64,000 bases of DNA from an uncultured Victivallales bacterium. Lineage in GTDB: Bacteria; Verrucomicrobiota; Lentisphaeria; Oligosphaerales; JABHEG01. This document shows positions 6,325 through 56,907 of the stretch, one piece after another; position 1 is the first letter of the stretch, and each line of letters starts with the position of its first letter. The translations under genes and the position numbers were made by a program. The stretch is taken from positions 12,189 to 76,188 of the forward strand of contig CAZSNT010000022.1 of the NCBI GenBank assembly GCA_964607765.1, in the 5' to 3' direction. Under the pieces are notes generated by a model that did not search any database, was not told where the DNA came from, and saw only the letters and a list, made by a program, of their open reading frames with translations.

Positions 6325-6338
6325 GTGGTCTCCGAGAG

Positions 6339-6432
6339 ATTGCTGGGTTGTTGGATTATTGGACTGGTGGGTTGCCGGATCCAGGTTCCTCCCCACTCCT
6401 CGCTCCCCGCTCCCCGCTCCCCGCTCCTCACC
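6339..6432. repeat. Composite short-tandem-repeat element in the pfk-to-oxidoreductase spacer (TTGCTGG/GTTGTTG-type block plus CGCTCCC heptamers)
   Basis: Read directly. 6339-6378 is attgctgggttgttggattattggactggtgggttgccgg. 6388-6432 reads on the minus (mRNA) strand as TGA GGAGCGG GGAGCGG GGAGCGG GGAGCGA GGAGTGG GGAGGAA, starting at the pfk stop codon. Confidence 0.9.
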
Positions 6433-18726: not shown

Positions 18727-19734
18727 CTACCGAAACCAGCCGCGTCTCCTACGCCGGCGCCGGCGCCGGCCCGGGTCGTCGTCATCGTCGTCATCATCGT
18801 CGTCATCATCGTCGTCATCGTCGTCGTCATCGTCGTCCCCGGGATTGTCCCCGTCTTCCGTCCCGTCGCCTCCGGGCAGTTGGTTGACCTCGCGCCGCGT
18901 GGTCTCGTTCTCGACCGTGCCGCTTGCCTGCGTGAACAGGCCGGAGTTCGTTGCCGTGGCTCCGGTCAACGCCACGGCGCCGCTGCCTACGCGCAACTCG
19001 GTCTGGGCGTGCGTGTCGTTCACGCTCGTGTCGACAATGAACTGTGTGCCCACAACACCGGCGATGGCCGCGGGGGTCACCACCTCGAACTTGGACTTCG
19101 GCGTGCGGTTCGAGGGCACGCTCACGTTGATGCTGGTGGCGCCGTAGTCCTCGAACACGCGGATGATCGAGTACAAACGCCCGTCCATGGAACGGATGGA
19201 CGTCAGGACCATCGCCCGGCCCGACAGGCTCGCCGTGGAGCCGTCCTCAAACGTGAGAACGCCGCCCGTTACCTCGTCGCCCGGATTTACGGGCTTGCCG
19301 TCGTGCAGGATCACACCGTTGTGGAACGCTCGCGTGCCCCTGCCCGGCGCGAAATTCACCACTTGATGGTGTGGACAGCCGGCAAAGTAGCTGTCGAGCT
19401 GCGCATGCTCGTCCTGTTCTTCACCCATGGCCCTGGGCACGTAGTACATCTCGTAGTTGTTCCCCGTGGTGGGGCAGTACCAGCTGTCCTTCTCTCCCCC
19501 GTGGTACTTGGCCAAAGCGGTCTGAAGCCCCTCGTGCGCGGGATAGCTCTGGTTGTCGTTGTAGAACAACTGAACGGCCATGGAGATGCCGCGAATGTTG
19601 TTGATACACTCCGCCTGGGCGGCACGCTCGGAAGCCTTGCGGATCACTGGTACCACCAGCGCCATGAGCACAAAGACCATGCTCAGTGCTACAAGCAGTT
19701 CGGTGAGACTGAAGACGTTCTGTTTGCTTCTCAT
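18727..19734 (-). CDS. Pseudopilin-like protein (prepilin-type N-terminal helix) fused to a FecR-like domain, with Asp21-Pro-Gly-Arg9 C-terminal tail
   Basis: N-terminus NVFSLTELLVALSMVFVLMALVVP. Central/C-terminal TPAAIAGVVGTQFIV resembles FecR-domain strands. The tail is read directly. Confidence 0.8.
   Translation of the reverse strand: MRSKQNVFSLTELLVALSMVFVLMALVVPVIRKASERAAQAECINNIRGISMAVQLFYNDNQSYPAHEGLQTALAKYHGGEKDSWYCPTTGNNYEMYYVPRAMGEEQDEHAQLDSYFAGCPHHQVVNFAPGRGTRAFHNGVILHDGKPVNPGDEVTGGVLTFEDGSTASLSGRAMVLTSIRSMDGRLYSIIRVFEDYGATSINVSVPSNRTPKSKFEVVTPAAIAGVVGTQFIVDTSVNDTHAQTELRVGSGAVALTGATATNSGLFTQASGTVENETTRREVNQLPGGDGTEDGDNPGDDDDDDDDDDDDDDDDDDDDDPGRRRRRRRRRGWFR
18742..18837 (-). repeat. 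Coding homopolymer tracts: 21 Asp codons (18775-18837) and 9 Arg codons (18742-18768)
   Basis: Counted codon by codon: 14 GAC + 7 GAT, and Arg encoded by 5 different codons. Confidence 0.95.
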
Positions 19735-24107: not shown

Positions 24108-24124
24108 GTTCCCGCTACTCGCTA
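24108..24124 (-). repeat. GAGTAGC x2 heptamer mini-array overlapping the pspA stop codon
   Basis: The minus strand reads GGC GAG TAG CGAGTAGCGGG. It is the same unit as the arrays at 28910 and 39097. Confidence 0.8.
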
Positions 24125-24802
24125 CTCGCCGGCGTGCGGCTTGCCGCCAGCCCGCTGTTTCATCTCTTCGAGCTCACGCTCAATATCCTCGTCACCGGTC
24201 AGTTCGGCAAACGCTTCGTCCAGGGCGCTGCCGCGTCGGCTGTCGTTCACCAACTCCGCAGCAGCCTCCATGCGCTCGATTCGCCCCTCGAACTGCTCGA
24301 ACCGTACCCACGCATCACTCGTGTCGGCGCGGCGGATGCCCTGCTGCGCCTGACGCTTGCGTTGCGCATGAATGTGGCGTCGCACCAGCACACGGTGCTT
24401 CTCACGTGCCGAGCTCAGCTTGTCCTCCAACTGATCGATGTCGCGGCGGTGCTGCTCGATCAGCTCCTGACACTCGGCCGCCTCCCGCTCGAGCGCATCG
24501 ACCCGATCAGTGCACTGTCGCTTGCGCAACAAGGCCTCCCGCGTCAGGCCCTCACACCCTTTGCTCAACGCCAACTCGGCGCGCTCGGACCAGAGCGTGA
24601 CGTTCTGTCCGGCCGCTTCCAGCTCACGCTCGATCTTCTTCCGTGTCGCCATTGTCCCGGCGCAGGACGCTTTGATCTCGACCAGCGTGTCCTCCATCTC
24701 CTGGATCATCAGCTTGATGAGCTTCTCCGGATCCTCCGCCTTCTCCAGCATCGCATTGATGTTCGAGCTCACAATGTCACGCAATCGTGTGAAAATGCCC
24801 AT
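24122..24802 (-). CDS. pspA: Phage shock protein A (PspA/IM30 family)
   Basis: MGIFTRLRDIVSSNINAMLEKAEDPEKLIKLMIQEMEDTL is a canonical PspA N-terminus. The start is taken at 24802. Confidence 0.92.
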   Translation of the reverse strand: MGIFTRLRDIVSSNINAMLEKAEDPEKLIKLMIQEMEDTLVEIKASCAGTMATRKKIERELEAAGQNVTLWSERAELALSKGCEGLTREALLRKRQCTDRVDALEREAAECQELIEQHRRDIDQLEDKLSSAREKHRVLVRRHIHAQRKRQAQQGIRRADTSDAWVRFEQFEGRIERMEAAAELVNDSRRGSALDEAFAELTGDEDIERELEEMKQRAGGKPHAGE

Positions 24803-26147: not shown

Positions 26148-26270
26148 GTCAGGCACCCGCCCTCGCCCGCCCATCTGCCGGCCCACAATCCCCTTCGTCC
26201 TCCTCTTCGTCCTCGCCAGGAAATCGCAGCGTGGACAGCGCCGGTCGAGCAGGGCAACCCGGCGTCCCGT

Positions 26271-28054: not shown

Positions 28055-28909
28055 ATGCAGTTCGTACTGTTCTCGAAGCACTGGAAAGAGCTCGACATCG
28101 AGGGGATGGTCGAGCGGACACTCGAGATTGGCGCCGACGGCGTGGACCTGGCCGTGCGCCCCGGCTTCGTCGTCAATCCGGACAATGTGCGCACGGAGCT
28201 TGCGCCTGCCGTCGCCAAGTTCCGCGCGGCCGGGCTCGACGTGCCCATGATCTCGACGGACGCGGGTTTCATCAGCCCGGACGACCCCGTTGCGGAGTCG
28301 ACGGCGGCTGCGCTCCAGGAGGCCGGCGTGCGCTACGGCAAGCTGGGCTACTGGCGCTGGCGCGACGGCGAGACCCCGTACTGGGAGCAGGTCGCGAAGA
28401 TCCGGCATGACCTGGAAGGGTTCGAAGCGCTCGGCCGCAGGTACGGCGTGACCTTCTGCTACCACACGCACAGCGACTACTTCGGGCTCAACGCGGCCGC
28501 CATGATGGACTTGCTCGAGGGCCGCGACCCGCAACACATGGGCGCGTACCTGGACACGGGCCACCTGCACTACTGCGGCGAGCCGTACCCCATGGCCATC
28601 GACATCGTGGGGCGCTATCTCACGCTCGTCTCGTTCAAAGACACGTCGTTCAAGCGCGTGAACGACGAGGCGGAGGAGCTGCCGGAGTGGAAGCGCGTCA
28701 TTGTGCCCGCCGGTTACGGCGTGGTGAAGTGGCAGAGCGTGTTCGGCGGCCTCATCAAGGCCGGCTACGACGGCGTGTGCAGCTGTCATTGCGAGTTCGC
28801 TGCGTCATCCCCGGAGGAGTTCCTGCACCTGCAGAAACGCGAGGTCGCGTATCTTCGCAATCAGCACGCGCAAGCGCAAACCCGTGCCGCCGCGGCATCG
28901 ACTCAGTAA
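28055..28909 (+). CDS. Sugar phosphate isomerase/epimerase (xylose isomerase-like TIM barrel)
   Basis: Family-like pattern (GADGVDLAVRP...CYHTHS...YLDTGH). ATG at 28055. Confidence 0.8.
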   Translation: MQFVLFSKHWKELDIEGMVERTLEIGADGVDLAVRPGFVVNPDNVRTELAPAVAKFRAAGLDVPMISTDAGFISPDDPVAESTAAALQEAGVRYGKLGYWRWRDGETPYWEQVAKIRHDLEGFEALGRRYGVTFCYHTHSDYFGLNAAAMMDLLEGRDPQHMGAYLDTGHLHYCGEPYPMAIDIVGRYLTLVSFKDTSFKRVNDEAEELPEWKRVIVPAGYGVVKWQSVFGGLIKAGYDGVCSCHCEFAASSPEEFLHLQKREVAYLRNQHAQAQTRAAAASTQ

Positions 28910-29016
28910 CGAGTAGCGGGGAGCGAGTAGCGAGTAGCGGGGACAGAGGAATGCCTGGCGCCTAACCCCTAACGCCTAGCGCCTAACCCCTAACGCCTAG
29001 CCCCTAACCCCTGACG
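28910..29016. repeat. Composite heptamer element: [GAGTAGC/GGGGAGC]x5 - spacer - [CCTAACC/CCTAACG/CCTAGCG]x8
   Basis: Read directly. The first block starts right after the TAA of the plus-strand gene. The second block (28961-29016) encodes the last 8 codons and the TAG stop of the minus-strand HlyD gene. Confidence 0.92.
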
Positions 29017-30487: not shown

Positions 30488-31036
30488 TCACGTTTCGGTC
30501 GAGACGAGCATCTGGCTGTGCGCATCCAGATCCGCGATATTCTCTATCTCGAAGCGGTTGCCGTCAACATCGCTGATCAGGTAGCGCCCGTGCGGCAGAA
30601 TGCGAATGTGGCGGTTCCGATCGCTGACTTCGAACGTGGCCGCGCCGCGGTCCGTGTCCACGTCCCAGAGCGAAACGCCCATCGCTTCGGTGACCTCGTG
30701 CACGCATTGGATCCGGGCCACGTAATACATGCGGCCCAGGGCCTGTTGCAGCGCCCCGGCGCTCGCTTCGTCCAGATGCTCAGGGTCGCGCAGCAGTACC
30801 TTCTCCACGCCGCGATCGTCGACGAAGCTGATGTAGCTCGCCTTCGTCGAAAGCGGAAACACGCGCCGTGGCCGGAGTCCGGCGAAATCCTCGTCCGCAA
30901 CCGTTACGTGCAGCTCGCACGCATCGTCTTCCCAGACCCGGGTCGCCGCCGCCTCAACGGCCCACTCGACAGCGGGGCCCGAGGTCGCGCCGGACGGCGT
31001 GTCCGACACTGGCTCTTTCTCTTCCGTTTGCTGCAT
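30488..31036 (-). CDS. DUF1854-like protein (small cytoplasmic partner of ABC exporter)
   Basis: Position between the ABC and HlyD genes. The sequence (LRPRRVFPLS...YISF...RIL.HGRYLI.D..GNRF.I) recalls DUF1854. Assigned from memory. Confidence 0.65.
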   Translation of the reverse strand: MQQTEEKEPVSDTPSGATSGPAVEWAVEAAATRVWEDDACELHVTVADEDFAGLRPRRVFPLSTKASYISFVDDRGVEKVLLRDPEHLDEASAGALQQALGRMYYVARIQCVHEVTEAMGVSLWDVDTDRGAATFEVSDRNRHIRILPHGRYLISDVDGNRFEIENIADLDAHSQMLVSTET

Positions 31037-31340
31037 TCCCTCGTTTCCGTTCCTTGTCCCGCTCCCTGTTTCCTCGTCCTCGTCCCCGTCCTCGTCCCCG
31101 TGTCCTCCGCCCTCCGGATGACTGAATGACTCAGTGACTCAGTGACTCATGTGGGCTGGCGCTTCGCATCCCGCATCTCCGCCGCTCCCCGCTCCTCCCT
31201 CTCGTTCCTCGCTCCTCGCTCCTCGTTCCTCGCTCCTCGCTCCTCGTTCCTCCCTCCTCGTTCCTCCCTCCTCCCTCCTCGCTCCTCGTTCCTCGTTCCT
31301 CGCTCCTCGCTCCTCGTTCCTCCCTCCTCCCTCCTCCCTC
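31037..31340 (-). repeat. Intercistronic spacer made of phased tandem repeats (20 x 7-mer, 4 x 8-mer, plus purine-rich degenerate heptamers)
   Basis: 31201-31340 is exactly 20 units of CTCGTTC/CTCGCTC/CTCCCTC. 31118-31150 is gatgactg aatgactc agtgactc agtgactc. 31037-31117 is a C-rich degenerate repeat. Confidence 0.95.
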
Positions 31341-33609
31341 ACACCGCCTTCAGGCTCGCAAGCTCGGACTGCAACCGGCACAGTCGCGCGTACAGCCCGT
31401 CCGTCTCAAGCAGCTCGTCGTGCGTCCCGATCTCGATCAGTTTGGAGCGCTCCAGCACCACCAGGCGGTGCGCTTTGCGCAAGGTGGACAGGCGGTGCGC
31501 GATCGCAAACGTCGTGCGGTCTTGCACCAACCGTTCCAAGGCGGCCTGGATCTTGGCTTCGGTTTCGGTATCGACCGAGGCGGTTGCTTCGTCGAGGATT
31601 AGGATACGCGGGTCACGCAGCACGGCCCGTGCGATCGAGATCCGCTGTCTCTCGCCGCCGGACAAGGTCTGACCGCGCTCCCCGATCACCGTGTCGTAAC
31701 CGTCGGGCAGGTTGACGACGAACTCGTGCGCGTTCGCCGCGCGTGCCGCGCTCATGATCTCCTCAGCCGAAGCTTCCGGCTTCCCGTAGGCGATGTTGGA
31801 CCACACCGTGCCGTGGAACAGGTAGGGTTCCTGCAGCACGACGCCGATCTGTTCCCGGTACCAGCCCAGGTCGAACTCCTGGATGTCGCGGCCGTCCACC
31901 CGGATTTCGCCTTCCTCCACGTCGTAGAAGCGCGCTATCAGGTGTACGAGCGTGCTCTTGCCCGCGCCGCTCGGACCCACGAGTCCGATCATCTCCCCGG
32001 GCTCGATCTTGAAGCTGATGTCGTCCAGCGCGTACTTGCCGGGCTCGTAGGAGAAGCGCACGTCCTGTAGTTCCACCGCGCCCTGCATGCGGTTGAGTAT
32101 GAGGCCCGGGGTTTCGAGCGGTTCGGGTTCGGCGTCCAGAATCTCGAACACGCGCTCCGCCGCTGTCAGGCAATGCTGCAGGCGGTGGTTCATTCGCCCG
32201 AACTCCTGGACCGGCCGGTAGAAACGCCACAGGTAGCTGGTAAACGCCACGAGCGTGCCCAGCGTCTCCATGTTGTTGATCACCATGAACCCGCCGACGC
32301 TGAAGATCAGGATGGAGCCCAGCGATGTCTGGATCGTCACGAACGGGAAGAAGGCGCTCACCAGCTTGATCGCCCGCATCTCCTGCTGGAACAGGTCCTG
32401 GCTCTTGGCGCGGAACGTGGCCGCCTCACGCCGTTCCTGTGCGAACGCCTTGACCACCCGGATGCCCGGTATGGTGTCGGCCAGGACCGCGTGCAGCCCA
32501 GACATCCGGCGCCAGATACGGTGATAGAGCAGGTGCATCTTGTGCCCGAACAGCCAGGTGCTGAACATGATGACAGGCGTTGGCGCGAGGGCGAGCAGGA
32601 ACAGGCGCCAGTTCAGGAACAGCAGGATCGCAGCGATCAGCACCATGGTGGCGATATTGACGATCGCGTCCTGGAACCCCTCCGCGATGAAGTACTGCAG
32701 CCGCCCCAGGTCGCTGGTCACCCGCGACATGATCCGGCCCGTCTGGCGTTGGCTGAAGAAGCGCAGCTGCAGCATCTGCATGTGCGCGTAGAGCCGCACG
32801 CGCAGGTCGAACAGCACGCGCTGGCCGACCCATTGCATGACGTAACCACGGAACACGGAGCCGACTGCCGAGAGCAGGTGGATGGCGGTCAGGGCGCCGA
32901 CCACCACGGGCAGAAGCGCGGCGTTGCCGGGCGTGATGACCCGGTCGATCAGGATCTTGGTCAGGTACGGCGGCATGAGCTGGATCCCGGTGATCGACAG
33001 CGTCAGCACCAACCCCAGCAAGGCCATCCACCGGTAGGGCAGCAAGAAAGAAAACAGGCGGCGCAGAATCTGACGGCGGTCCTGGCAGTGGATACACACC
33101 TCGCTCCAACGGCTCAGCGCGCGGCCGCACTGGCGGCAGCGGTGATCCGGGCGCTTGGTGGCCGGCGGCGCAATGTCCTCGAAACCGCGCCCCTCGGACA
33201 GGCCCTTTACGACCTCATTGATGTAGTAGCACAGGTCCGATGCCTCGTGGTGCGAGCCCAGGGAGAAACGTGCCACCTCCTCCCCACCCGTGCTGCACCG
33301 GATGACCACCGCTCCGGAGCCGACGTACGAGCGCAACACAGCGTCTTCCACGTCAGCCAGGTCGGCCTCGTAGACCACCTCGCCGCCGCGCCCGCCGTGG
33401 TCGCCGTCTATGCTCAGGATGCGCGTGTTGGTCAGGAAACACCAGCGTTCCCCGAACGCTCCCGACGGCAGGATGTCCGAGAACAGGCAGGCCACGGCGT
33501 GCTCGCCGGCGCGCAGAGCGTCGTCGAGCCAGACGGCAACATCCGGGGGGAGCGTCAGCTCTCCCAAGGCCGGGTGCCGTACCGAACTGCTGGGGATTGC
33601 ATCGGGCAT
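31339..33609 (-). CDS. ABC exporter, fused permease/ATPase (MsbA-like type I exporter fold) with ~200 aa N-terminal PH-like domain and zinc ribbon
   Basis: Walker A GPSGAGKST, signature LSGGERQR, Walker B ILILDEATS and 6 TM helices. The N-terminal extension contains CRQCGRALSRWSEVCIHCQD. The start is taken at MPDAIPSS (33609). Confidence 0.9.
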   Translation of the reverse strand: MPDAIPSSSVRHPALGELTLPPDVAVWLDDALRAGEHAVACLFSDILPSGAFGERWCFLTNTRILSIDGDHGGRGGEVVYEADLADVEDAVLRSYVGSGAVVIRCSTGGEEVARFSLGSHHEASDLCYYINEVVKGLSEGRGFEDIAPPATKRPDHRCRQCGRALSRWSEVCIHCQDRRQILRRLFSFLLPYRWMALLGLVLTLSITGIQLMPPYLTKILIDRVITPGNAALLPVVVGALTAIHLLSAVGSVFRGYVMQWVGQRVLFDLRVRLYAHMQMLQLRFFSQRQTGRIMSRVTSDLGRLQYFIAEGFQDAIVNIATMVLIAAILLFLNWRLFLLALAPTPVIMFSTWLFGHKMHLLYHRIWRRMSGLHAVLADTIPGIRVVKAFAQERREAATFRAKSQDLFQQEMRAIKLVSAFFPFVTIQTSLGSILIFSVGGFMVINNMETLGTLVAFTSYLWRFYRPVQEFGRMNHRLQHCLTAAERVFEILDAEPEPLETPGLILNRMQGAVELQDVRFSYEPGKYALDDISFKIEPGEMIGLVGPSGAGKSTLVHLIARFYDVEEGEIRVDGRDIQEFDLGWYREQIGVVLQEPYLFHGTVWSNIAYGKPEASAEEIMSAARAANAHEFVVNLPDGYDTVIGERGQTLSGGERQRISIARAVLRDPRILILDEATASVDTETEAKIQAALERLVQDRTTFAIAHRLSTLRKAHRLVVLERSKLIEIGTHDELLETDGLYARLCRLQSELASLKAV

Positions 33610-33810
33610 CACGGACCACCAGTTCCCGCGGGTGCCGGAGAGGCGCTCAAACAGCGCCGGAGCGAAGCCGCACCGTCTCACGGCTCGCCTGGCGGCACGA
33701 GGCATGCCGCAACTCATCAGGATAAACCGCCACCCAACGAAATCAAGAGCCTTGCGGCAACAGGCAGCACGGCACGTGGAAATGCGCCGTGTGTTACGGT
33801 ATGTTAGAAC

Positions 33811-34302
33811 TTGGTTGCCGGCAGGGGACGGCCGCTCCCTGCGCTTAGCCGCAGGGGGAGGAAAGTCCGGACTCCGCAGGGCAGGAAGTCCTTTTGAAAA
33901 GAAGGATACCGCGGACCATATGCCGCGGGAAGGAAAGTGCCACAGAAAATATACCGCTCTTCAGCTGAAGAGTAAGGGTGAAAAGGTGGGGTAAGAGCCC
34001 ACCGCTCGAGGAGAGATCCGAGAGGCAAGGCAAACCCCTTCCGGAGCAAGACCAAATAGGGAACAATGATGCTGCCCGTATCGCTCCCGCACCTAAACGG
34101 CTTTGGCAGTGCTGTTTGCAGACGGTCCAGCCTGGTGCAGGCAGGGCCGGGGACAGCCCGAGCCGCCTAGGTGCGGGATAAGTTCCGGGTTCCGGTCGCT
34201 TAGATGAATGGTCGTCGCCCGTGCCTGCTTCGGTGCCGGAGTTTCTCCGGCTCCGATCGCGGCGCGGGGCACAGAATCCGGCTTATACCTGTCGGTAACC
34301 AG
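33811..34302 (+). ncRNA. rnpB: RNase P RNA, bacterial type A
   Basis: GGAGGAAAGTCCGGAC, GTGCCACAGAAAA, GGTAAGAGCCCACC, CAAGACCAAATAGGG, CTTAGATGAATGG and ACAGAATCCGGCTTA conserved blocks in the canonical order. The P1 pairing is ggttgccggcagg / cctgtcggtaacc. Confidence 0.92.
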
Positions 34303-38376: not shown

Positions 38377-39108
38377 ATGCGCACGTTTCGGAACTTCTCC
38401 TGGAAAGACAGCAACCTGCGGATCTGCTGTAGCCGTGCCCAGGCGGTCGAGAGCGAGATCGTCCGTCAGCGGACCACACTCGAAGCCTACATCGAACGGC
38501 ATCCGGAATTCCGCACCAGTTACGTGCCCGTCGGGCTGCGCAGCGATGCGCCACGCATCGCCAGACTCATGCAGGAAGCGGCCGCACGCGTCGGGGTCGG
38601 GCCCATGGCCGCGGTGGCCGGCACCATCGCACAACTGGCCGCGGAAGCCGGCGTGGCCGCAGGTGCGACAGAGGCCATCGTCGAGAATGGCGGAGACATT
38701 TACCTGATTTCCGACTGTGACATCACCGTCGCTCTCCACACCGGTACGGAGCGGCTGGGCAGTCGGCTCGCGCTCGCATTGAGCCCCGCACACCTGCCGC
38801 TGTCGCTCTGTTCCTCGTCCAGTCGGATGGGACACTCCGACAGTCGCGGTGACTGTGACCTGGCTACCGTCGCCTCGCGCAGCGCAGCCCTGGCAGACGC
38901 CGCCGCAACGCATGCCTGCAACCTGGTGCGTGACCAGGCCGATATCGATTGCGTGCTGGAACAGGTGGGCGCCATCCGCGGCGTTGCAGGGCTGCTGATC
39001 GTCAAAGGCGATCGCGTCGGACTCTACGGCGATCTGCCCCCGTTGGTGAAACACGCAGACCCCGACGTCGGTCTGAAAGTCACAAAGGACCGTCGCAGTA
39101 GCGAGTAA
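38377..39108 (+). CDS. UPF0280 / COG2122 (ApbE-like) protein
   Basis: GVGPMAAVAGTIAQ...ENGGDIYL pattern typical of UPF0280. The final codons and the TAA stop come from the GAGTAAC repeat. Confidence 0.78.
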   Translation: MRTFRNFSWKDSNLRICCSRAQAVESEIVRQRTTLEAYIERHPEFRTSYVPVGLRSDAPRIARLMQEAAARVGVGPMAAVAGTIAQLAAEAGVAAGATEAIVENGGDIYLISDCDITVALHTGTERLGSRLALALSPAHLPLSLCSSSSRMGHSDSRGDCDLATVASRSAALADAAATHACNLVRDQADIDCVLEQVGAIRGVAGLLIVKGDRVGLYGDLPPLVKHADPDVGLKVTKDRRSSE

Positions 39109-39229
39109 CGAGTAGCGAGTAACGAGTAGCAGGCCGCAGGCCCGAATGAGTCACCTAACCCCTAACGCCTAACCCTAACGCCTAACCCCTAACGCCTAAC
39201 CCCTAACACTGAACACCGAACACACCAAC
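39097..39229 (+). repeat. Second copy of the composite heptamer element: [GAGTAGC/GAGTAAC]x4 - spacer with ATGAGTCAC - [CCTAACC/CCTAACG...]x11
   Basis: Read directly. It has the same order and orientation as 28910-29016. The last units degenerate to CCTAACA CTGAACA CCGAACA CACCAAC. Confidence 0.92.
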
Positions 39230-46152: not shown

Positions 46153-47358
46153 TCACTGCCGCTCCAGCTTCCGCAACGCCTCCGCGTAACGCCGCCCCAG
46201 CTCCCGGAGCGCGGCAGACGAGAAGTGCGTACCATCGCCCTTGTGCGAGATGCCGTCAGACTTCACCACAGCCGCGTTCGCGATCCAGTCGGGGACGGCT
46301 GCCAGGTTCTCGTTGAAGCGTTGGCGTGCTGCGTGTCCCTCCTGGTCCCACACCCCGAGTTCACCTGCAACGAAGGGCACGTCGGCAGCGTCCAAGTCGC
46401 GACGCAGATCGGTCACGAGTTTCGTCAGCCGCTCGCGGTATCGGGCAATGCCTGCAGCGGAACTGTCACCTTCGCCCTGGTGCCAGAGCATGCCTTTGAG
46501 AATGCCGTCCGGCAGCGCGGCCTTGGTACGGGCGACTGCGTTCTTGTACAGATGCCCCCACGGCGGCGTTGCCTCGGCGTCCTTCTGCCACTGCGCAACC
46601 CGCGTGCCGCCTACGGCGCACGGAATCAGACCTATCACCGCGTTCGGATGACGGTCCGCCATGATCTTGCCGAATGTCGTCCCCAACCCGACCCCGGCGA
46701 TGGACTTGTCGAAATGGATCGGGTCAACGGCAACTACCCAGCGGTTACCTTTGTCGAGCGTCAGAACGCGCGGGTGGATCGAGAGATCCTGACTCTCCAC
46801 CTTGCCGCGGCCGGCCATATTCGACTGCCCGATCAACAGGTAAAGATGGAACTTCCGCCGCTGCTCCTCGGACTTTGTCGGCGCGGCCGGCTCAGGCTCG
46901 GGCGGCGGCAGCGCCCGGCTTGTGATGCCCTCGTCATCGAGCTTGAGCACAATCACGCCCGCCCCGCACTTCTTCCCGAAGACAATGCGCTCGGGAGGAT
47001 CCGAATACACCACCACGCGATACGGCACCCGCCTCTTGCCGTCCGGGCTCTGGATCGTGAAACGCAGGTCCGTCTCACGTATAGCAAGTCCAAGCTGACG
47101 GATCGCCTTCAGATCACTCTCACTTACGCCAAGCGTGGCGACGCGTGTTCCAGGCGGCACAGTCGCAGTCCGAGCGCCGCATGCCTGCTGCGGCACGGTG
47201 GCGTCGCTTAGCAACGCTGACGGCACATCCCCCATCTGCCACACGCCGCCCCGATCGTGCCACGGACACGCGCCTTCCTTAACCTGATACGTGCCTCCAC
47301 CCAAGACGCTGCCGGAACAGAACACACACACGCACAGAATGCCGTCACACACTCTCAT
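46153..47358 (-). CDS. Sialate O-acetylesterase-like SGNH/DUF303 (SASA) carbohydrate esterase
   Basis: LIGQSNMAGRG and WHQGEGDS motifs. The start is taken at MRVCDG (47358). Confidence 0.8.
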   Translation of the reverse strand: MRVCDGILCVCVFCSGSVLGGGTYQVKEGACPWHDRGGVWQMGDVPSALLSDATVPQQACGARTATVPPGTRVATLGVSESDLKAIRQLGLAIRETDLRFTIQSPDGKRRVPYRVVVYSDPPERIVFGKKCGAGVIVLKLDDEGITSRALPPPEPEPAAPTKSEEQRRKFHLYLLIGQSNMAGRGKVESQDLSIHPRVLTLDKGNRWVVAVDPIHFDKSIAGVGLGTTFGKIMADRHPNAVIGLIPCAVGGTRVAQWQKDAEATPPWGHLYKNAVARTKAALPDGILKGMLWHQGEGDSSAAGIARYRERLTKLVTDLRRDLDAADVPFVAGELGVWDQEGHAARQRFNENLAAVPDWIANAAVVKSDGISHKGDGTHFSSAALRELGRRYAEALRKLERQ

Positions 47359-47396
47359 CGTCAACGCCCTTCCGCCTGCCACCACCCGCAGGCACG

Positions 47397-47502
47397 CCAT
47401 CCGTGGTCGGGCTCTCCGGTATCCGTGGTCGGGCTCTGCCATCCGTGGTCAGTCTGTCCGCCATCCGTGGTCGGGCTCTGCCATCCGTGGTCAGCCCTGT
47501 CC
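47397..47502. repeat. Five imperfect 20-22 bp direct repeats (ATCCGTGGTC-R-G-N-CT-S-T-S-C) upstream of the esterase gene
   Basis: The ATCCGTGGTC core starts at 47399, 47421, 47441, 47463 and 47483, giving spacings of 22, 20, 22 and 20 bp. Confidence 0.9.
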
Positions 47503-47647
47503 GAGACTGATGCGGCCCATCGTCGCCACTATACGAGACCGTTCAGTGGATGCCATCCCGAGCGGCGGAGATGATGCCCCCACGGCGCGCAGCCCTGTCG
47601 TGGCACATCTCTGTTCCGCCACTACGGCATGAAGGACGGTGGGTGAC

Positions 47648-48004: not shown

Positions 48005-48252
48005 TCTTCGATCACCTTCCTGGCGGCGTAGCGTTTGCTCTGCTCGCGGAGTAGCCGATCTTCGCGGGGCGGCGCATCTGCGTAGACCGCATCCAACTGC
48101 TCCAGCATGCACTGGTTGCGGCGCCTGGCAACCAGCGCCTCAGCCGCCTGGGCGAACGCGGCGCTTCGGGAGATATGCTCCTCGCCGGCCAGTTCGTCCA
48201 TTGCCCGAAGCAACCACTCAGGAACCGAGATGGCCGTTTTCACAGTCGCCAT
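47998..48252 (-). CDS. Ribbon-helix-helix (CopG/MazE-like) antitoxin
   Basis: MATVKTAISVPEWLLRAMDELA is an RHH N-terminus. It sits immediately upstream of, and overlaps, the toxin gene. Confidence 0.75.
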   Translation of the reverse strand: MATVKTAISVPEWLLRAMDELAGEEHISRSAAFAQAAEALVARRRNQCMLEQLDAVYADAPPREDRLLREQSKRYAARKVIEEW

Positions 48253-48438
48253 GTTTGGGCCCTCATAACGAGAGGTATAACTAGTGGTTATTCCATAAGT
48301 ATAACCTACTGTTTTACCCGATGTTGTCAAGAGGCTCGAGGAGAAGCCAATGCCACAATCGAACGTGCTGTTCATCATCGTCGACCAGTGGCACTGCCAG
48401 TGCAGCGGCTCTCAACCCCTTATCTCAACGCCATTCGC

Positions 48439-54681: not shown

Positions 54682-54787
54682 GATCTTCTCCCCGTCCTCT
54701 CTGCAGTTGCACCCAGGCCCGTGCAGGTCCCCAACAGTCGGATCCCGCTCACGAACCTGCTTGAGATGTTCTCGATACGCACTATAT

Positions 54788-56158
54788 GTGCTGCATCAAA
54801 CCTGGGAAAGGAACGCCATCATTAACAAAGAGCAGTCCCCCAACGTCCTCGTATTGATGACCGATCAGCACCAGGCGCAGGCACTGCACTGTGCCGGGCA
54901 CCCCGACGTGTCAACGCCGAATCTGGATGAGTTCGCGGAAACGGCGTACCGGTTCGACCACGCCTATTGTCTCGCCCCGGTCTGTGTCGCCTCCCGCGGT
55001 TCGCTGATCACCGGGCTGCGCCCGAGCGCGCACGGCGCCCGTCTACTGTGCGAGGCCCTCGACGACGGCATCCCGACCATCGCCCATCATTTCGCCCGGG
55101 CCGGCTACCGGACAGCTGCCATCGGGCGCATGCACTTTGTCGACGAGTCGCGACGACATGGGTTCCGGCACCGCGTGAACGAAGACGATTTCCGCGCCAC
55201 GCTCAGCCCCGACGACCTCGAGCAGATCCGCTCCTGCAGACGCAACACGGGCAGCGTCGACGGCGCGCCGTCCGACTTGCCGGCACGTCTTTGGCAGGAT
55301 ACCTACTACGCTGACGAGACAATCCGGTTTCTGCAGACCGCCCGGGACACGGACCAACCGTTCCTGCTGTGGTCGTCCTACTTCAATCCGCACACGCCAC
55401 TCACGCCGATGCGCGAGTATTTCGATCTCTACGATCCGGCCCGCCTCACGCTTCCCGACCGACGCACCGACGCGTTGCGGCACGGCTTCGAGGGTCACCT
55501 GATCCGTGCCCGCGAACGCGGCTGGTACGACCAGACGGAAGCGGCGCTCAGGCGCAGCCTGGCCGGTTACTACGGGAACGTCAGCCAGGTCGATGCCTGC
55601 ATCGGCCGCGTACTCTCCGTGCTGCGGCAGACTGGGCTGGACCGGGACACAATCGTCGTCTACACCAGCGACCACGGCGAGATGGCCGGCGCCCATCGCA
55701 TGTGGACCAAACACAACATGCACGAGCAGTCGGTCAACGTCCCCTTGCTCATCCGCGTGCCGGGCACGGCAGATACCGGGACCGTGTGTCCGCACCTGAT
55801 TTCCCAAGTGGATCTCTACCCCGCTTTGGCCGAGCTCTGCGGGCTCCCCGCACCGACCGGCGTGCACGGGCGCAGCTTCGCACCGCTACTCACCGGCGGC
55901 GCATACACGGCGCGCGATGCCGTCGTGGCGCAGTATGACTTCTGTCACAAAGTCTTCACCAAGGATGATCGCTACGTCGGCCGCGATCCGATCCGGATGA
56001 TCCGCACGCAACGCTGGAAACTGAACGAACTGAGCTGGGCGAAGAGCGAGCTGTACGACTTGCAGAACGATCCCGCGGAACATGTCAACCGGGTCGATGA
56101 CCCGGGGCTGGCGGACGTCGTCGCCGAACTCAGAGCAAGACTCTCGAGTGCGTTCTGA
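54788..56158 (+). CDS. Sulfatase (arylsulfatase A family), C-x-A-x-R active-site variant, no signal peptide
   Basis: PNVLVLMTDQH and CVASRGSLITG (C-x-A-x-R-x4-TG). The only in-frame start that retains the conserved N-terminus is GTG 54788. Confidence 0.82.
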   Translation: MLHQTWERNAIINKEQSPNVLVLMTDQHQAQALHCAGHPDVSTPNLDEFAETAYRFDHAYCLAPVCVASRGSLITGLRPSAHGARLLCEALDDGIPTIAHHFARAGYRTAAIGRMHFVDESRRHGFRHRVNEDDFRATLSPDDLEQIRSCRRNTGSVDGAPSDLPARLWQDTYYADETIRFLQTARDTDQPFLLWSSYFNPHTPLTPMREYFDLYDPARLTLPDRRTDALRHGFEGHLIRARERGWYDQTEAALRRSLAGYYGNVSQVDACIGRVLSVLRQTGLDRDTIVVYTSDHGEMAGAHRMWTKHNMHEQSVNVPLLIRVPGTADTGTVCPHLISQVDLYPALAELCGLPAPTGVHGRSFAPLLTGGAYTARDAVVAQYDFCHKVFTKDDRYVGRDPIRMIRTQRWKLNELSWAKSELYDLQNDPAEHVNRVDDPGLADVVAELRARLSSAF

Positions 56159-56312: not shown

Positions 56313-56891
56313 TCACTCCCCCGCGTCGCCGCCGTCGCCCCCGGTAAACAGCCGCGTGAGCTGCCACAGCGGCAGCCCCGTCCGCCTCAACACGCTCCGG
56401 CCCGGGCGCTTCAGGAAACACGTCACGCCCACATCGCCGCGTTCCATCCAGAAACACTCCCAGCGCTCCTGCCCCAATTCGTTCAGGCGCTGCTCCGCCC
56501 CGGCAGTATCCCGTGATTCCAGCACGACTGTCTTGTACTCCCACGTCCCGATCTTCTTCAGATCCTCCTTCACCCACTCGCTCACCGTAGCAGGGACCTT
56601 CTCACCCGAGCGTTTCGCCTGTTCATACAGCTCATTGATTCTCCGGCTGATCTTCTTCCGGTCATACAGCTCCTTGACTCTCTGCAGTGCGCCGCTCTTC
56701 TCCTCCTGCTCTTGCACGGCCGGCGTGTCGACGGCCGTGTCCCTGCCGACATTCCCCGTCCCGGGATCCTCCCGACCCTCGGCCGCCACCGCAAACACGA
56801 GCAATCCCAACACAACCGAAACAAGCCCTCTGCCACTCTTCATCCGACTCTTCATCCGACTCTTCATCCCGCTCTTCATCCCACTCTTCAT
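56313..56891 (-). CDS. Secreted DUF4177-like protein with repeat-encoded N-terminus (MKS[G/R] x5)
   Basis: Hydrophobic signal core LVSVVLGLLVFAVAA. The C-terminal GTWEYKTVVLE...LNELGQERWE resembles DUF4177. Five in-frame ATGs at 12-nt spacing. The start is placed at the most upstream (56891), which is uncertain. Confidence 0.6.
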   Translation of the reverse strand: MKSGMKSGMKSRMKSRMKSGRGLVSVVLGLLVFAVAAEGREDPGTGNVGRDTAVDTPAVQEQEEKSGALQRVKELYDRKKISRRINELYEQAKRSGEKVPATVSEWVKEDLKKIGTWEYKTVVLESRDTAGAEQRLNELGQERWECFWMERGDVGVTCFLKRPGRSVLRRTGLPLWQLTRLFTGGDGGDAGE

Positions 56892-56907
56892 CCCACTCTT
56901 GCTCCCT
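56836..56907 (-). repeat. 12-bp tandem repeat (5-6 units) inside the 5' end of the DUF4177-like gene
   Basis: ctcttcatccga x2, ctcttcatcccg, ctcttcatccca x2, ctcttgctccct. The mRNA sense is ATGAAGAG(T/C)(G/C)GG. Confidence 0.92.

Follow-up and report, generated by a model that had tools for sequence, protein, structure and literature searches.

A stop-proximal array of heptanucleotide repeats in the gap between an ABC exporter gene and a DUF1854 gene

Introduction

Tandem heptanucleotide repeats located between bacterial genes have been known since 1990, when the short tandemly repeated repetitive (STRR) sequences of heterocystous cyanobacteria were reportedly described by Mazel et al. STRR sequences are intergenic tandem heptamers, form several unit families per genome, and are co-transcribed with operons. 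Repeats of this type still lack an established function or mechanism. The subject of this study is an array of 20 heptamers found in 64,000 nucleotides of DNA from an uncultured Victivallales bacterium (contig CAZSNT010000022.1 of assembly GCA_964607765.1), a stretch that will be called the window. The array lies between a gene for an ABC exporter and a gene for a DUF1854 protein, begins at the stop codon of the former, and belongs to a gap built almost entirely of short repeats. The view that we favor, with a probability of roughly 0.55, is that the gap is a complex of microsatellites produced by slippage and tolerated because the operon junction is neutral in this place.

As cited in two later papers, heptanucleotides are the most abundant long simple sequence repeats (SSRs) in bacteria; they are sporadic, long repeats favor large genomes of high GC content, and polymerase slippage has been proposed as their cause (Mrazek 2007, via PMC4679880 and PMC4692102). 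The closest described cases are the GGGAATC repeats of Xanthomonas and the GGGGA(C/T)T repeats of Nostoc/Anabaena PCC 7120, which comprise 2 to 26 units and lie mostly between open reading frames (ORFs) of the same direction (Rehm et al. 2015, PMC4692102). Their mean distance is 28 nt to the upstream ORF and 160 nt to the downstream one; most lie 0–50 bp from the stop and on the coding strand, and some overlap the stop codon; a GGGGATT array of 26 units even lies inside an operon, between pecE and pecF. They are transcribed, vary between close species, and include inverted pairs, and they form G-quadruplexes (G4) in vitro, with neither a function identified nor a regulatory role found (PMC4692102). 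Another known heptamer, TAACTGA, forms direct repeats upstream of start codons in marine Beggiatoaceae, some Cyanobacteria and Bacteroidetes, where it has been proposed to act in translation or as a target of RNA-binding proteins (MacGregor 2015, PMC4679880).

The array of the window resembles the Xanthomonas and Nostoc repeats in its tandem period of 7, in being noncoding, in belonging to a set of dispersed arrays, and in lying near the upstream stop on the coding strand. It differs from them in its units, phased as CGAG[G/T]A[G/A], which contain no run of four G3 tracts and are therefore not expected to form a canonical G4; in mixing three variants; in adjoining arrays of 8-mers and 12-mers; in lacking an inverted partner; and in its host, probably a bacterium of the Planctomycetes–Verrucomicrobia–Chlamydiae (PVC) group. 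A preliminary description of the locus had compared the array with STRR, and the comparison pointed to the right class: both are intergenic tandem heptamers with several unit families per genome. Membership in STRR itself is ruled out by the non-cyanobacterial nature of the window and by unit sequence (CCCCAGT, TTGGTCA and CAACAGT in STRR; GAGCGAG, GAACGAG and GAGGGAG here). The TAACTGA repeats are likewise intergenic, scattered across phyla, and built of units that contain stop codons, as do the CGAGTAG and CGAGTAA units described below. However, they occur mostly in 2 to 6 copies a few nucleotides before starts, whereas the arrays of the window begin at stops; the different unit and the distance of about 165 nt that separates the heptamer array from the DUF1854 ATG rule out membership. 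Tandem 7-nt copies, noncoding dispersed arrays and a stop-proximal position on the coding strand were all observed, and the array fits the class of intergenic heptameric long SSRs in every respect tested save unit sequence and G4 capacity. The stop-proximal geometry of heptamers is thus already published for Xanthomonas and Nostoc; new are this locus, which brings a probable PVC-group bacterium into the class, and the unit family, previously undescribed and widespread in metagenomes. Searches of the literature for the unit strings returned nothing relevant, and no report was found that links heptamer repeats to PVC phyla.

Results

Organization of the gap

The gap between the two genes measures 302 nt (31037–31338). 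The preliminary description gave 304 bp, a figure that includes two bases of the stop codon; its statement that the spacer starts at the stop holds, and the TGA that ends the ABC exporter gene shares two bases with the heptamer array. In the sense of the mRNA, the order is TGA, 20 heptamers, three degenerate units, a segment of about 50 nt, four octamers, a 6/12-mer array, GAGGGA and the ATG of the DUF1854 gene (Table 1), with a gene for an HlyD-type adaptor further downstream. Direct reading reproduced the 20 in-phase units of three variants previously reported, namely seven CTCGTTC (T), seven CTCGCTC (C) and six CTCCCTC (P), as well as their plus-strand order: T C C T C C T P T P P C T T C C T P P P. 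Tandem Repeats Finder extended the array to 31183–31340 (period 7, 22.7 copies, score 204) and ranked it by far as the top repeat of the window. The higher-order patterning perceived in the run of units is only suggestive: when the run is compared with itself, the best agreement is 7 of 10 units, reached with a shift of 10 units, and it falls short of significance once the ten offsets tried are taken into account.

The remark that the gap has almost no unique sequence was accurate, and extends even to the seemingly unique middle segment, which contains a duplicated heptamer. Four octamers are present, as described; TGAGTCA is exact in three of them only, and the fourth reads TCAGTCA in the mRNA sense. 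The three exact copies place one TGA in each frame, so that all three frames are stopped on both strands. A coding role for the array, already discounted in the preliminary description, is ruled out by its period of 7, by the conserved ancestral stop that precedes it, and by its position outside the ORFs supported by GC content at third codon positions (GC3).

Two further observations concern the middle of the gap. The first ATG past the heptamers opens a mini-ORF of 9 codons (31147–31176, minus strand) in the frame of the ABC exporter gene, with GGAG motifs upstream; its stop is the TGA of the first TGAGTCA octamer. As a candidate genome-wide operator motif, TGASTCA was discarded because the window contains 5 sites against 7 expected.

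The heptamer array is real, because a Logan contig assembled independently from run SRR8146442, and retrieved by exact-protein look-up with DUF1854, matches the 194 nt beside the DUF1854 gene with zero mismatches, 30 nt of the array included. A literature search for the accession of this run returned no paper. The Logan contig stops at that point, as expected of a k = 31 graph; the count of 20 units and their order rest on short-read assembly. The exact ABC exporter protein has no record elsewhere. Strain-level relatives were not found, the protein clusters at 90% identity being singletons, and a scan of genome contigs yielded no close relative (best match, 38% identical).

Table 1. Positions of the repeat arrays and associated features. 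Coordinates are those of the window unless another contig is named.
Feature	Position	Strand	Remarks
ABC exporter gene	31339..33717	-	792-aa ORF, PF00664 (ABC_membrane) and PF00005 (ABC_tran)
TGA stop of ABC exporter gene	31339..31341	-	C-terminus ...LQSELASLKAV, then stop; same as relatives to last residue
Focal array, 20 heptamers	31201..31340	-	mRNA sense GAGGGAG / GAGCGAG / GAACGAG; phased units CGAGGAG, CGAGGAA, GGAGGAG; direct read, Tandem Repeats Finder
Degenerate continuation of the array	31178..31200	-	AGGGAG GAGCGGG GAGCGGC GGA; GAGCGGG unit common to post-pfk array
Duplicated heptamer in the middle segment	31164..31177	-	GATGCGG GATGCGA; direct sequence read
Mini-ORF, 9 codons	31147..31176	-	MRDAKRQPT, then stop; frame analysis
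Four octamers	31118..31149	-	TGAGTCAC x2, TGAGTCAT, TCAGTCAT; 4.0 copies; Tandem Repeats Finder
Purine-rich 6/12-mer array	31047..31101	-	GGGGACGAGGAC x2.6 and degenerate copies; leads to Shine–Dalgarno-like GAGGGA before ATG
ATG of DUF1854 gene (30488..31036, PF08909)	31034..31036	-	first start codon past three-frame stop block
Post-pfk array	6389..6427	-	GGAGCGG x5.6 (phased CGGGGAG), directly after pfk TGA 6428-6430
Post-pspA array	24113..24129	-	CGAGTAG x2.4; stop TAG 24122-24124 inside first unit; pspB next, same strand
Post-TIM-barrel array	28905..28943	+	CGAGTAG/CGGGGAG x5, from TAA 28907-28909
UPF0280-type array	39097..39130	+	CGAGTAG/CGAGTAA x4.6; supplies last three codons of the gene and TAA 39106-39108
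Related 12-mer pair	26189..26214	-	GAGGACGAAGAG GAGGACGAAGGG; about 55 nt 3' of RNase_T exonuclease gene stop; resembles GGGGACGAGGAC units
Inverted heptamer pairs, metagenome contigs	L122 2165-2305; L073 2725-2822; L087 2670-2790		many others among L065-L144
Inverted heptamer pairs, relative L187	6543-6714; 9420-9534; 19127-19299		relative of the window organism
Arrays of contig L109	1-118; 494-672; 2757-2886; 6241-6480; 10690-10763		

The junction in relatives

At 53 distant DUF1854 loci, the stop of the ABC gene and the start of DUF1854 nearly always share a 4-nt ATGA overlap or lie at most 64 nt apart; one Schlesneria contig has a 321-nt gap of unique, hairpin-rich sequence. In four relatives with 54–56% DUF1854 identity, the gaps measure 26, 9, 50 and 180 nt and are made of unique sequence without a heptamer array. 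Conservation of the ABC exporter C-terminus in relatives, down to its last residue, shows that the stop codon is ancestral; the array follows it immediately. Altogether, the array is a lineage-specific insertion into a junction that is normally tight.

Other junctions were also compared. The array that follows pspA in the window is absent from the pspA-pspB junction of a partly syntenic relative, L058. Another relative, L187, whose pfk is 75% identical, contains many heptamer arrays with other units, and five more relatives have none in about 80 kb. In summary, at protein identities of 54–56% (DUF1854) or 75–77% (pfk), arrays are absent or have other units. The nearest named homologs of pfk belong to Lentisphaeria, Kiritimatiellota and Victivallales (66–72% identity).

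Short stretches of sequence are, in turn, common to the focal locus and its relatives. The junction of L058 and L059 reads GTGTGAGGCGCAAAGGTG, compared with GTGTGAGGGAGGAGGG at the focal locus, and the segment before the start codon reads GGGGAAACGAGACACGATG in L055, compared with GGAAACGAGGGAATG. A TGAGG junction is thus shared with one relative, and GAAACGAG precedes the ATG both at the focal locus and in another. On the strength of these two short strings, it is plausible that an ancestral, short, purine-rich segment made of the stop and the Shine–Dalgarno (SD) sequence was the seed of GAACGAG-type units.

Related arrays in the window

When placed in the same phase, the GAG-type arrays of the window form one family, CGAG[G/T]A[G/A] (CGAGKAR), with CGGGGAG and GGAGGAG as variants. 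Arrays had been announced at the stops of pfk, pspA, a TIM-barrel gene and a UPF0280-type gene, and all four were found; the related pair located 3' of an exonuclease gene was also recovered, as a pair of 12-mers (Table 1). Gene labels were checked with Pfam and NCBIfam, which identified PFK, PspA and PspB (with a divergent sigma-54 activator), an AP_endonuc_2 TIM barrel, PRK04334 (UPF0280-type) and an RNase_T exonuclease. Overall, the 64 kb contain at least six period-7 arrays of at least four copies, all of them either between GC3-supported ORFs or overlapping last codons only.

The position of these arrays is uniform. In five out of five CGAGKAR arrays, the 5' end in the sense strand is at most a few bases away from a stop codon of the same strand. 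Random placement in noncoding space would give this outcome with a chance of 2.5–3.7% per array, or about 3e-8 jointly, which shows a bias in position among the arrays of the window. The count of four stop-abutting arrays in five that are followed by a same-strand cistron was also correct.

Two of the arrays are part of composite elements (28905–29016 and 39097–39223, plus strand), in which CGAGTAG-type heptamers that start at a TAA stop are followed by a spacer of about 20 nt and by 7 to 10 units of CCTAACC/CCTAACG. Stops arise in each of the three frames with both unit types, and with CCTAACC this holds for the two strands alike. Arrays of CCTAACC look like Rho-loading sites because they are C-rich, G-poor and unstructured; their excess of C over G, +33 in 78 nt, is the third most extreme in the window. 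The first composite element encodes the last nine or so codons and the TAG of a convergent HlyD-type gene. The possibility that AGTAGCG and CCTAACC arrays are the arms of one hairpin was ruled out (z = 0.2 to 2.6). Next to the post-pfk array, a 64-nt leader (6325–6388, minus strand; CAACCCACCAGTCCAATAATCCAACAACCCAGCAA), rich in C and A and poor in G, precedes the ATG (6324) of a GFO/IDH/MocA gene, and the succession of a G/A-rich array and a C/A-rich tract recalls the two composite elements.

Properties of the sense RNA

Of the 302 nt of the gap, 243 are purines and only 12 are T in the sense strand. Since the 140-nt array has no T, it contains neither start nor stop codons in any sense frame. 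The predicted minimum free energy of the gap is −51.5 kcal/mol, compared with −63.3 for dinucleotide shuffles (z = +3.0), and its fold is weaker than that of every shuffle. The most extreme windows of C minus G in the 64 kb also lie here (+41 and +36 in the antisense strand, 5.3 standard deviations), the sense strand being G-rich.

Known signals were searched for as well. A scan for sigma-70-like promoters and intrinsic terminators between 28800 and 34500 found none in the gap, with the proviso that the promoter type of the host may differ. Rfam matches at gathering threshold in the whole window were limited to RNase P RNA and two tRNAs and left the gap unmatched; relaxing the threshold to E ≤ 10 in the gap produced one irrelevant 13-bit match and none to CsrB/Rsm. 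Like the SSRs responsible for phase variation, the array is a slippage-prone tandem repeat beside genes. However, contingency repeats lie in ORFs or between promoter elements, and their copy number switches expression; a contingency locus is ruled out here because the array begins after a conserved stop and no promoter-like site was found in the gap.

Heptamer arrays in metagenomes

A scan of metagenome contigs from JGI for three tandem CGAGKAR units retrieved at least 120 contigs, 80 of which were analyzed. Their GC content ranges from 36 to 71%. With ORFs called crudely, the 5' end falls at most 30 nt from the 3' end of a same-strand ORF in about 21 arrays, and about 10 adjoin an ORF on the opposite strand. 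Long single arrays similar to the focal one were also detected: one has 38 copies of CGAGGGG after an ORF of 1082 aa, and another has 13 CGAGGAA-type units preceded by TGA and three copies of GGAGGCT.

In many of the contigs analyzed, and also in relative L187, heptamer arrays form inverted pairs located just after stops, with very stable predicted hairpins of 30–45 bp (z −5.6 to −10). The period is always 7, while the units vary by locus. In two of three cases (L122 and L073), the CGAGUAG-sense strand folds better by 6–7 kcal/mol, as expected if G·U pairs matter, and this asymmetry suggests that the inverted pairs are an RNA-level element. The arrays of the window are not pairs of this kind (z 0.2 to +3.0).

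Two contigs deserve separate mention. In L100 (45% GC), an NNNGGAA array of 22 units (CGAGGAA, CAAGAAA, CCCGGAA; 925–1120) leads without a gap to the ATG of a gene for a PnuC-like transporter, so that its last unit supplies an AGGA ribosome-binding site. Contig L109 (209 kb, 42% GC) harbors long arrays of GAGTAGC (17 units) and of CTAACC-type units (7–26 units), the same two unit types as in the window, whose GC content is 64%, in a different arrangement.

Discussion

The reading that we favor regards the 302-nt gap as a lineage-specific pile-up of tandem duplications of 7, 8 and 12 nt, dominated by a CGAG[G/T]A[G/A] microsatellite of 20 to 23 units, that would have opened an ABC exporter/DUF1854 junction that is tight, and translationally coupled, in relatives. 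Replication slippage or unequal exchange of heptamer units would account for the origin of the array and for its changes in length; slippage-proneness had been part of the preliminary description and is the best-supported origin. The seed probably came from the former short spacer, in its purine-rich segment that holds the stop and the SD sequence. Persistence may be explained if the bases between the upstream stop and the next ribosome-binding region are the only neutral place of the junction, and any array seeded in those few bases would be bound to lie against the stop, on the coding strand. The sense RNA would be harmless, as it lacks start and stop codons and is predicted to be unstructured; Rho should load poorly on it because it is unstructured and is the stretch of the window with the strongest skew of G over C. 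The gap would presumably be transcribed by read-through within the operon mRNA. Translation of the two genes would then be uncoupled, and DUF1854 would be initiated de novo from the purine-rich leader. The locus provides an unusually clean natural experiment: repeats alone have set 302 nt between two genes whose junction is nearly always tight. Even if neutral, it documents that operon junctions tolerate and shape microsatellite growth.

Several observations weigh against this reading:

(i). The adjacency to stops of all five sense arrays, together with the occurrence of the units in at least 120 contigs, could mean selection for function.

(ii). The inverted pairs found after stops in other contigs make stable hairpins with the strand asymmetry typical of G·U pairing, and heptamer arrays can therefore be functional RNA elements.

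(iii). Adjacency to stops is in part automatic for the three arrays whose units carry TAG or TAA, as any ORF that enters them ends there.

(iv). The argument for the seed leans on just two short shared strings.

Functional alternatives (a ribosome platform, a protein-binding scaffold, a non-B structure and a Rho insulator) can be envisaged, and each of these, like an assembly artefact, fails as a general explanation of the array family. One is that the repeats are a ribosome platform: GAGG and GGAG motifs would hold 30S subunits released at the ABC stop as a standby pool for DUF1854 initiation, as proposed in the preliminary description, which saw in the array a site of anti-SD pairing that couples termination to re-initiation. 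The gap contains 25 GGAG, 32 GAGG and 14 GGAGG, its RNA is single-stranded in the predicted fold, and the organism uses SD pairing, since SD-like 4-mers precede 36% of crude gene starts versus 15% by chance (p = 4e-4). Anti-SD pairing with the gap RNA is physically plausible, and a local effect on DUF1854 translation is possible for this reason. The array of contig L100 that abuts a start codon is also in line with the proposal, as is the proximal purine-rich array of the focal locus, which reaches the ATG with GAGGGA immediately before it. The heptamers of the focal locus, however, stop some 165 nt short. Relatives couple the two genes by direct overlap or very short gaps, which the array abolishes. 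The arrays of CGAGTAG/CGAGTAA found in the same position at the pspA, TIM-barrel and UPF0280-type genes have no SD core. Furthermore, one array of the window and about half of the SD-like CGAGGAR arrays in the contigs analyzed are followed by a convergent gene, so that there is nothing to re-initiate on, and the same geometry is observed for the GGGAATC and GGGGAYT heptamers (PMC4692102), which are not SD-like. The coupling proposal is left unsupported by these data, and we regard a platform as unlikely.

A second alternative, which we hold to be improbable in equal measure, is that the array is a multivalent scaffold or sponge for a single-strand RNA-binding protein (CsrA, Hfq, S1 or a cold-shock protein), either to regulate the operon or to titrate the protein. 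The 302 nt of unstructured RNA contain 43 GGA motifs, which resemble those of CsrB, a carrier of roughly 18–22 GGA repeats. Like the sponge RNAs CsrB and RsmZ, the gap has a few hundred nucleotides and dozens of GGA motifs in a repeat of roughly 7 nt. CsrB and RsmZ are, however, stand-alone RNAs with their own promoter and terminator and have GGA in hairpin loops, whereas the focal RNA is intercistronic and unstructured, with its GGA motifs outside loops. Membership in CsrB/Rsm by family model is ruled out by the lack of an Rfam match, even at E ≤ 10, and by a fold weaker than that of shuffles. Binding of (G/U)AG triplets in the manner of TRAP was dropped because GAG spacing is 0–1 nt; TRAP needs 2–3 nt and is restricted to Bacilli. 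Identical units do recur in unrelated contigs, as a scaffold would predict, and S1, Csp (cold-shock) proteins or CsrA have been proposed, without test, as binders of the TAACTGA repeats (PMC4679880). On the other hand, CGAGTAG/CGAGTAA members have no GGA, and the coexistence of several unrelated unit types in one genome would require several binders. No gene for a binder was identifiable within the 64 kb.

A somewhat fainter possibility is that CGAG[G/T]A[G/A] arrays and companions such as CCTAACS, rather than passive products of slippage, are traces of a dedicated, sporadic system that places period-7 arrays at the 3' ends of genes or makes use of them there. Identical units in contigs of 36–71% GC, a 5' end anchored at stops, frequent inverted pairs with the strand asymmetry typical of G·U pairing and a patchy distribution among relatives are hints in this direction. 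One candidate is a 3'-end element acting at the RNA level, as a hairpin arm or as a platform for a protein or Rho; another is templated repeat addition. If a dedicated system existed, an operon would have captured the focal array, a member with a single arm of unusual length.

Doubtful to a greater degree is the idea that a non-B structure (a G4 in the RNA or in the non-template DNA, an R-loop, or a polypurine triplex) influences transcription, replication or the decay of the mRNA. When G-quadruplexes are allowed, the fold predicted by ViennaRNA includes three of two layers and reaches −85 kcal/mol, compared with −51.5 otherwise; the array opens with about 24 nt of pure purine, and the Xanthomonas and Nostoc heptamers form G4 in vitro (PMC4692102). 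Against this idea, the six GGG-bearing units of the focal array are never found four in a row, and in the lack of a short-loop cluster of four GGG tracts only the weaker two-tier G4s are left. In addition, 14 of the 20 units carry a C that interrupts the purine strand, at a spacing of 7 nt; members of the CGAGTAR type are not capable of G4, and no regulatory role was found in the published cases (PMC4692102).

Equally doubtful is a selected, strand-asymmetric insulator, in which the sense RNA would escape Rho while antisense (CUCGCUC)n would load it and block antisense entry into the ABC gene. In agreement with such a device, the sense RNA is unstructured, and the windows ranked first and second in C minus G over the 64 kb, more than 5 standard deviations out, both lie in the gap. 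The argument is, however, purely compositional, the skew being an automatic by-product of a purine-rich repeat. Relatives have no need of an insulator, and C-rich CCTAACC arrays lie in the sense orientation between same-strand genes, so that no consistent rule emerges.

Finally, an assembly artefact of a short-read metagenome bin is very improbable: the array, at 140–160 nt, exceeds typical assembly k-mers, the Logan contig breaks within it and the exact ABC protein has no record elsewhere, but that contig is identical over the adjoining 194 nt with 30 nt of array, at least six arrays of related design exist in the window and many comparable ones in other assemblies, and the doubt is confined to copy number and unit order.

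Additional features of the window

Divergent from the ABC exporter gene, and about 100 nt upstream of it, is a gene for a class A bacterial RNase P RNA (33816–34301, plus strand; 215.8 bits). As it spans 486 nt compared with the 367 positions of the model, this RNA carries sizeable insertions.

Other tandem repeats were detected. A repeat of 22/42 nt (CGCCATCCGTGGTCGGGCTCTC; 47395–47503, 4.6 copies, score 133–165) extends across the start of an ORF (46153–47442, minus strand) and the intergenic region. Two 12-nt repeats lie inside ORFs, at 18775–18837 (GTCGTCATCATC x5.2) and 56833–56900 (CCACTCTTCATC x5.7); unlike that of the intergenic heptamers, their period is a multiple of three. Lastly, two stretches classified as intergenic (54682–55042 and 48113–48438) contain sulfatase-like reading frames, such as LMTDQHQAQALHCAGHPDVSTPNLDEF. 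These stretches may be gene fragments or ORFs missed by the crude gene caller, and would fit a PVC-group host.

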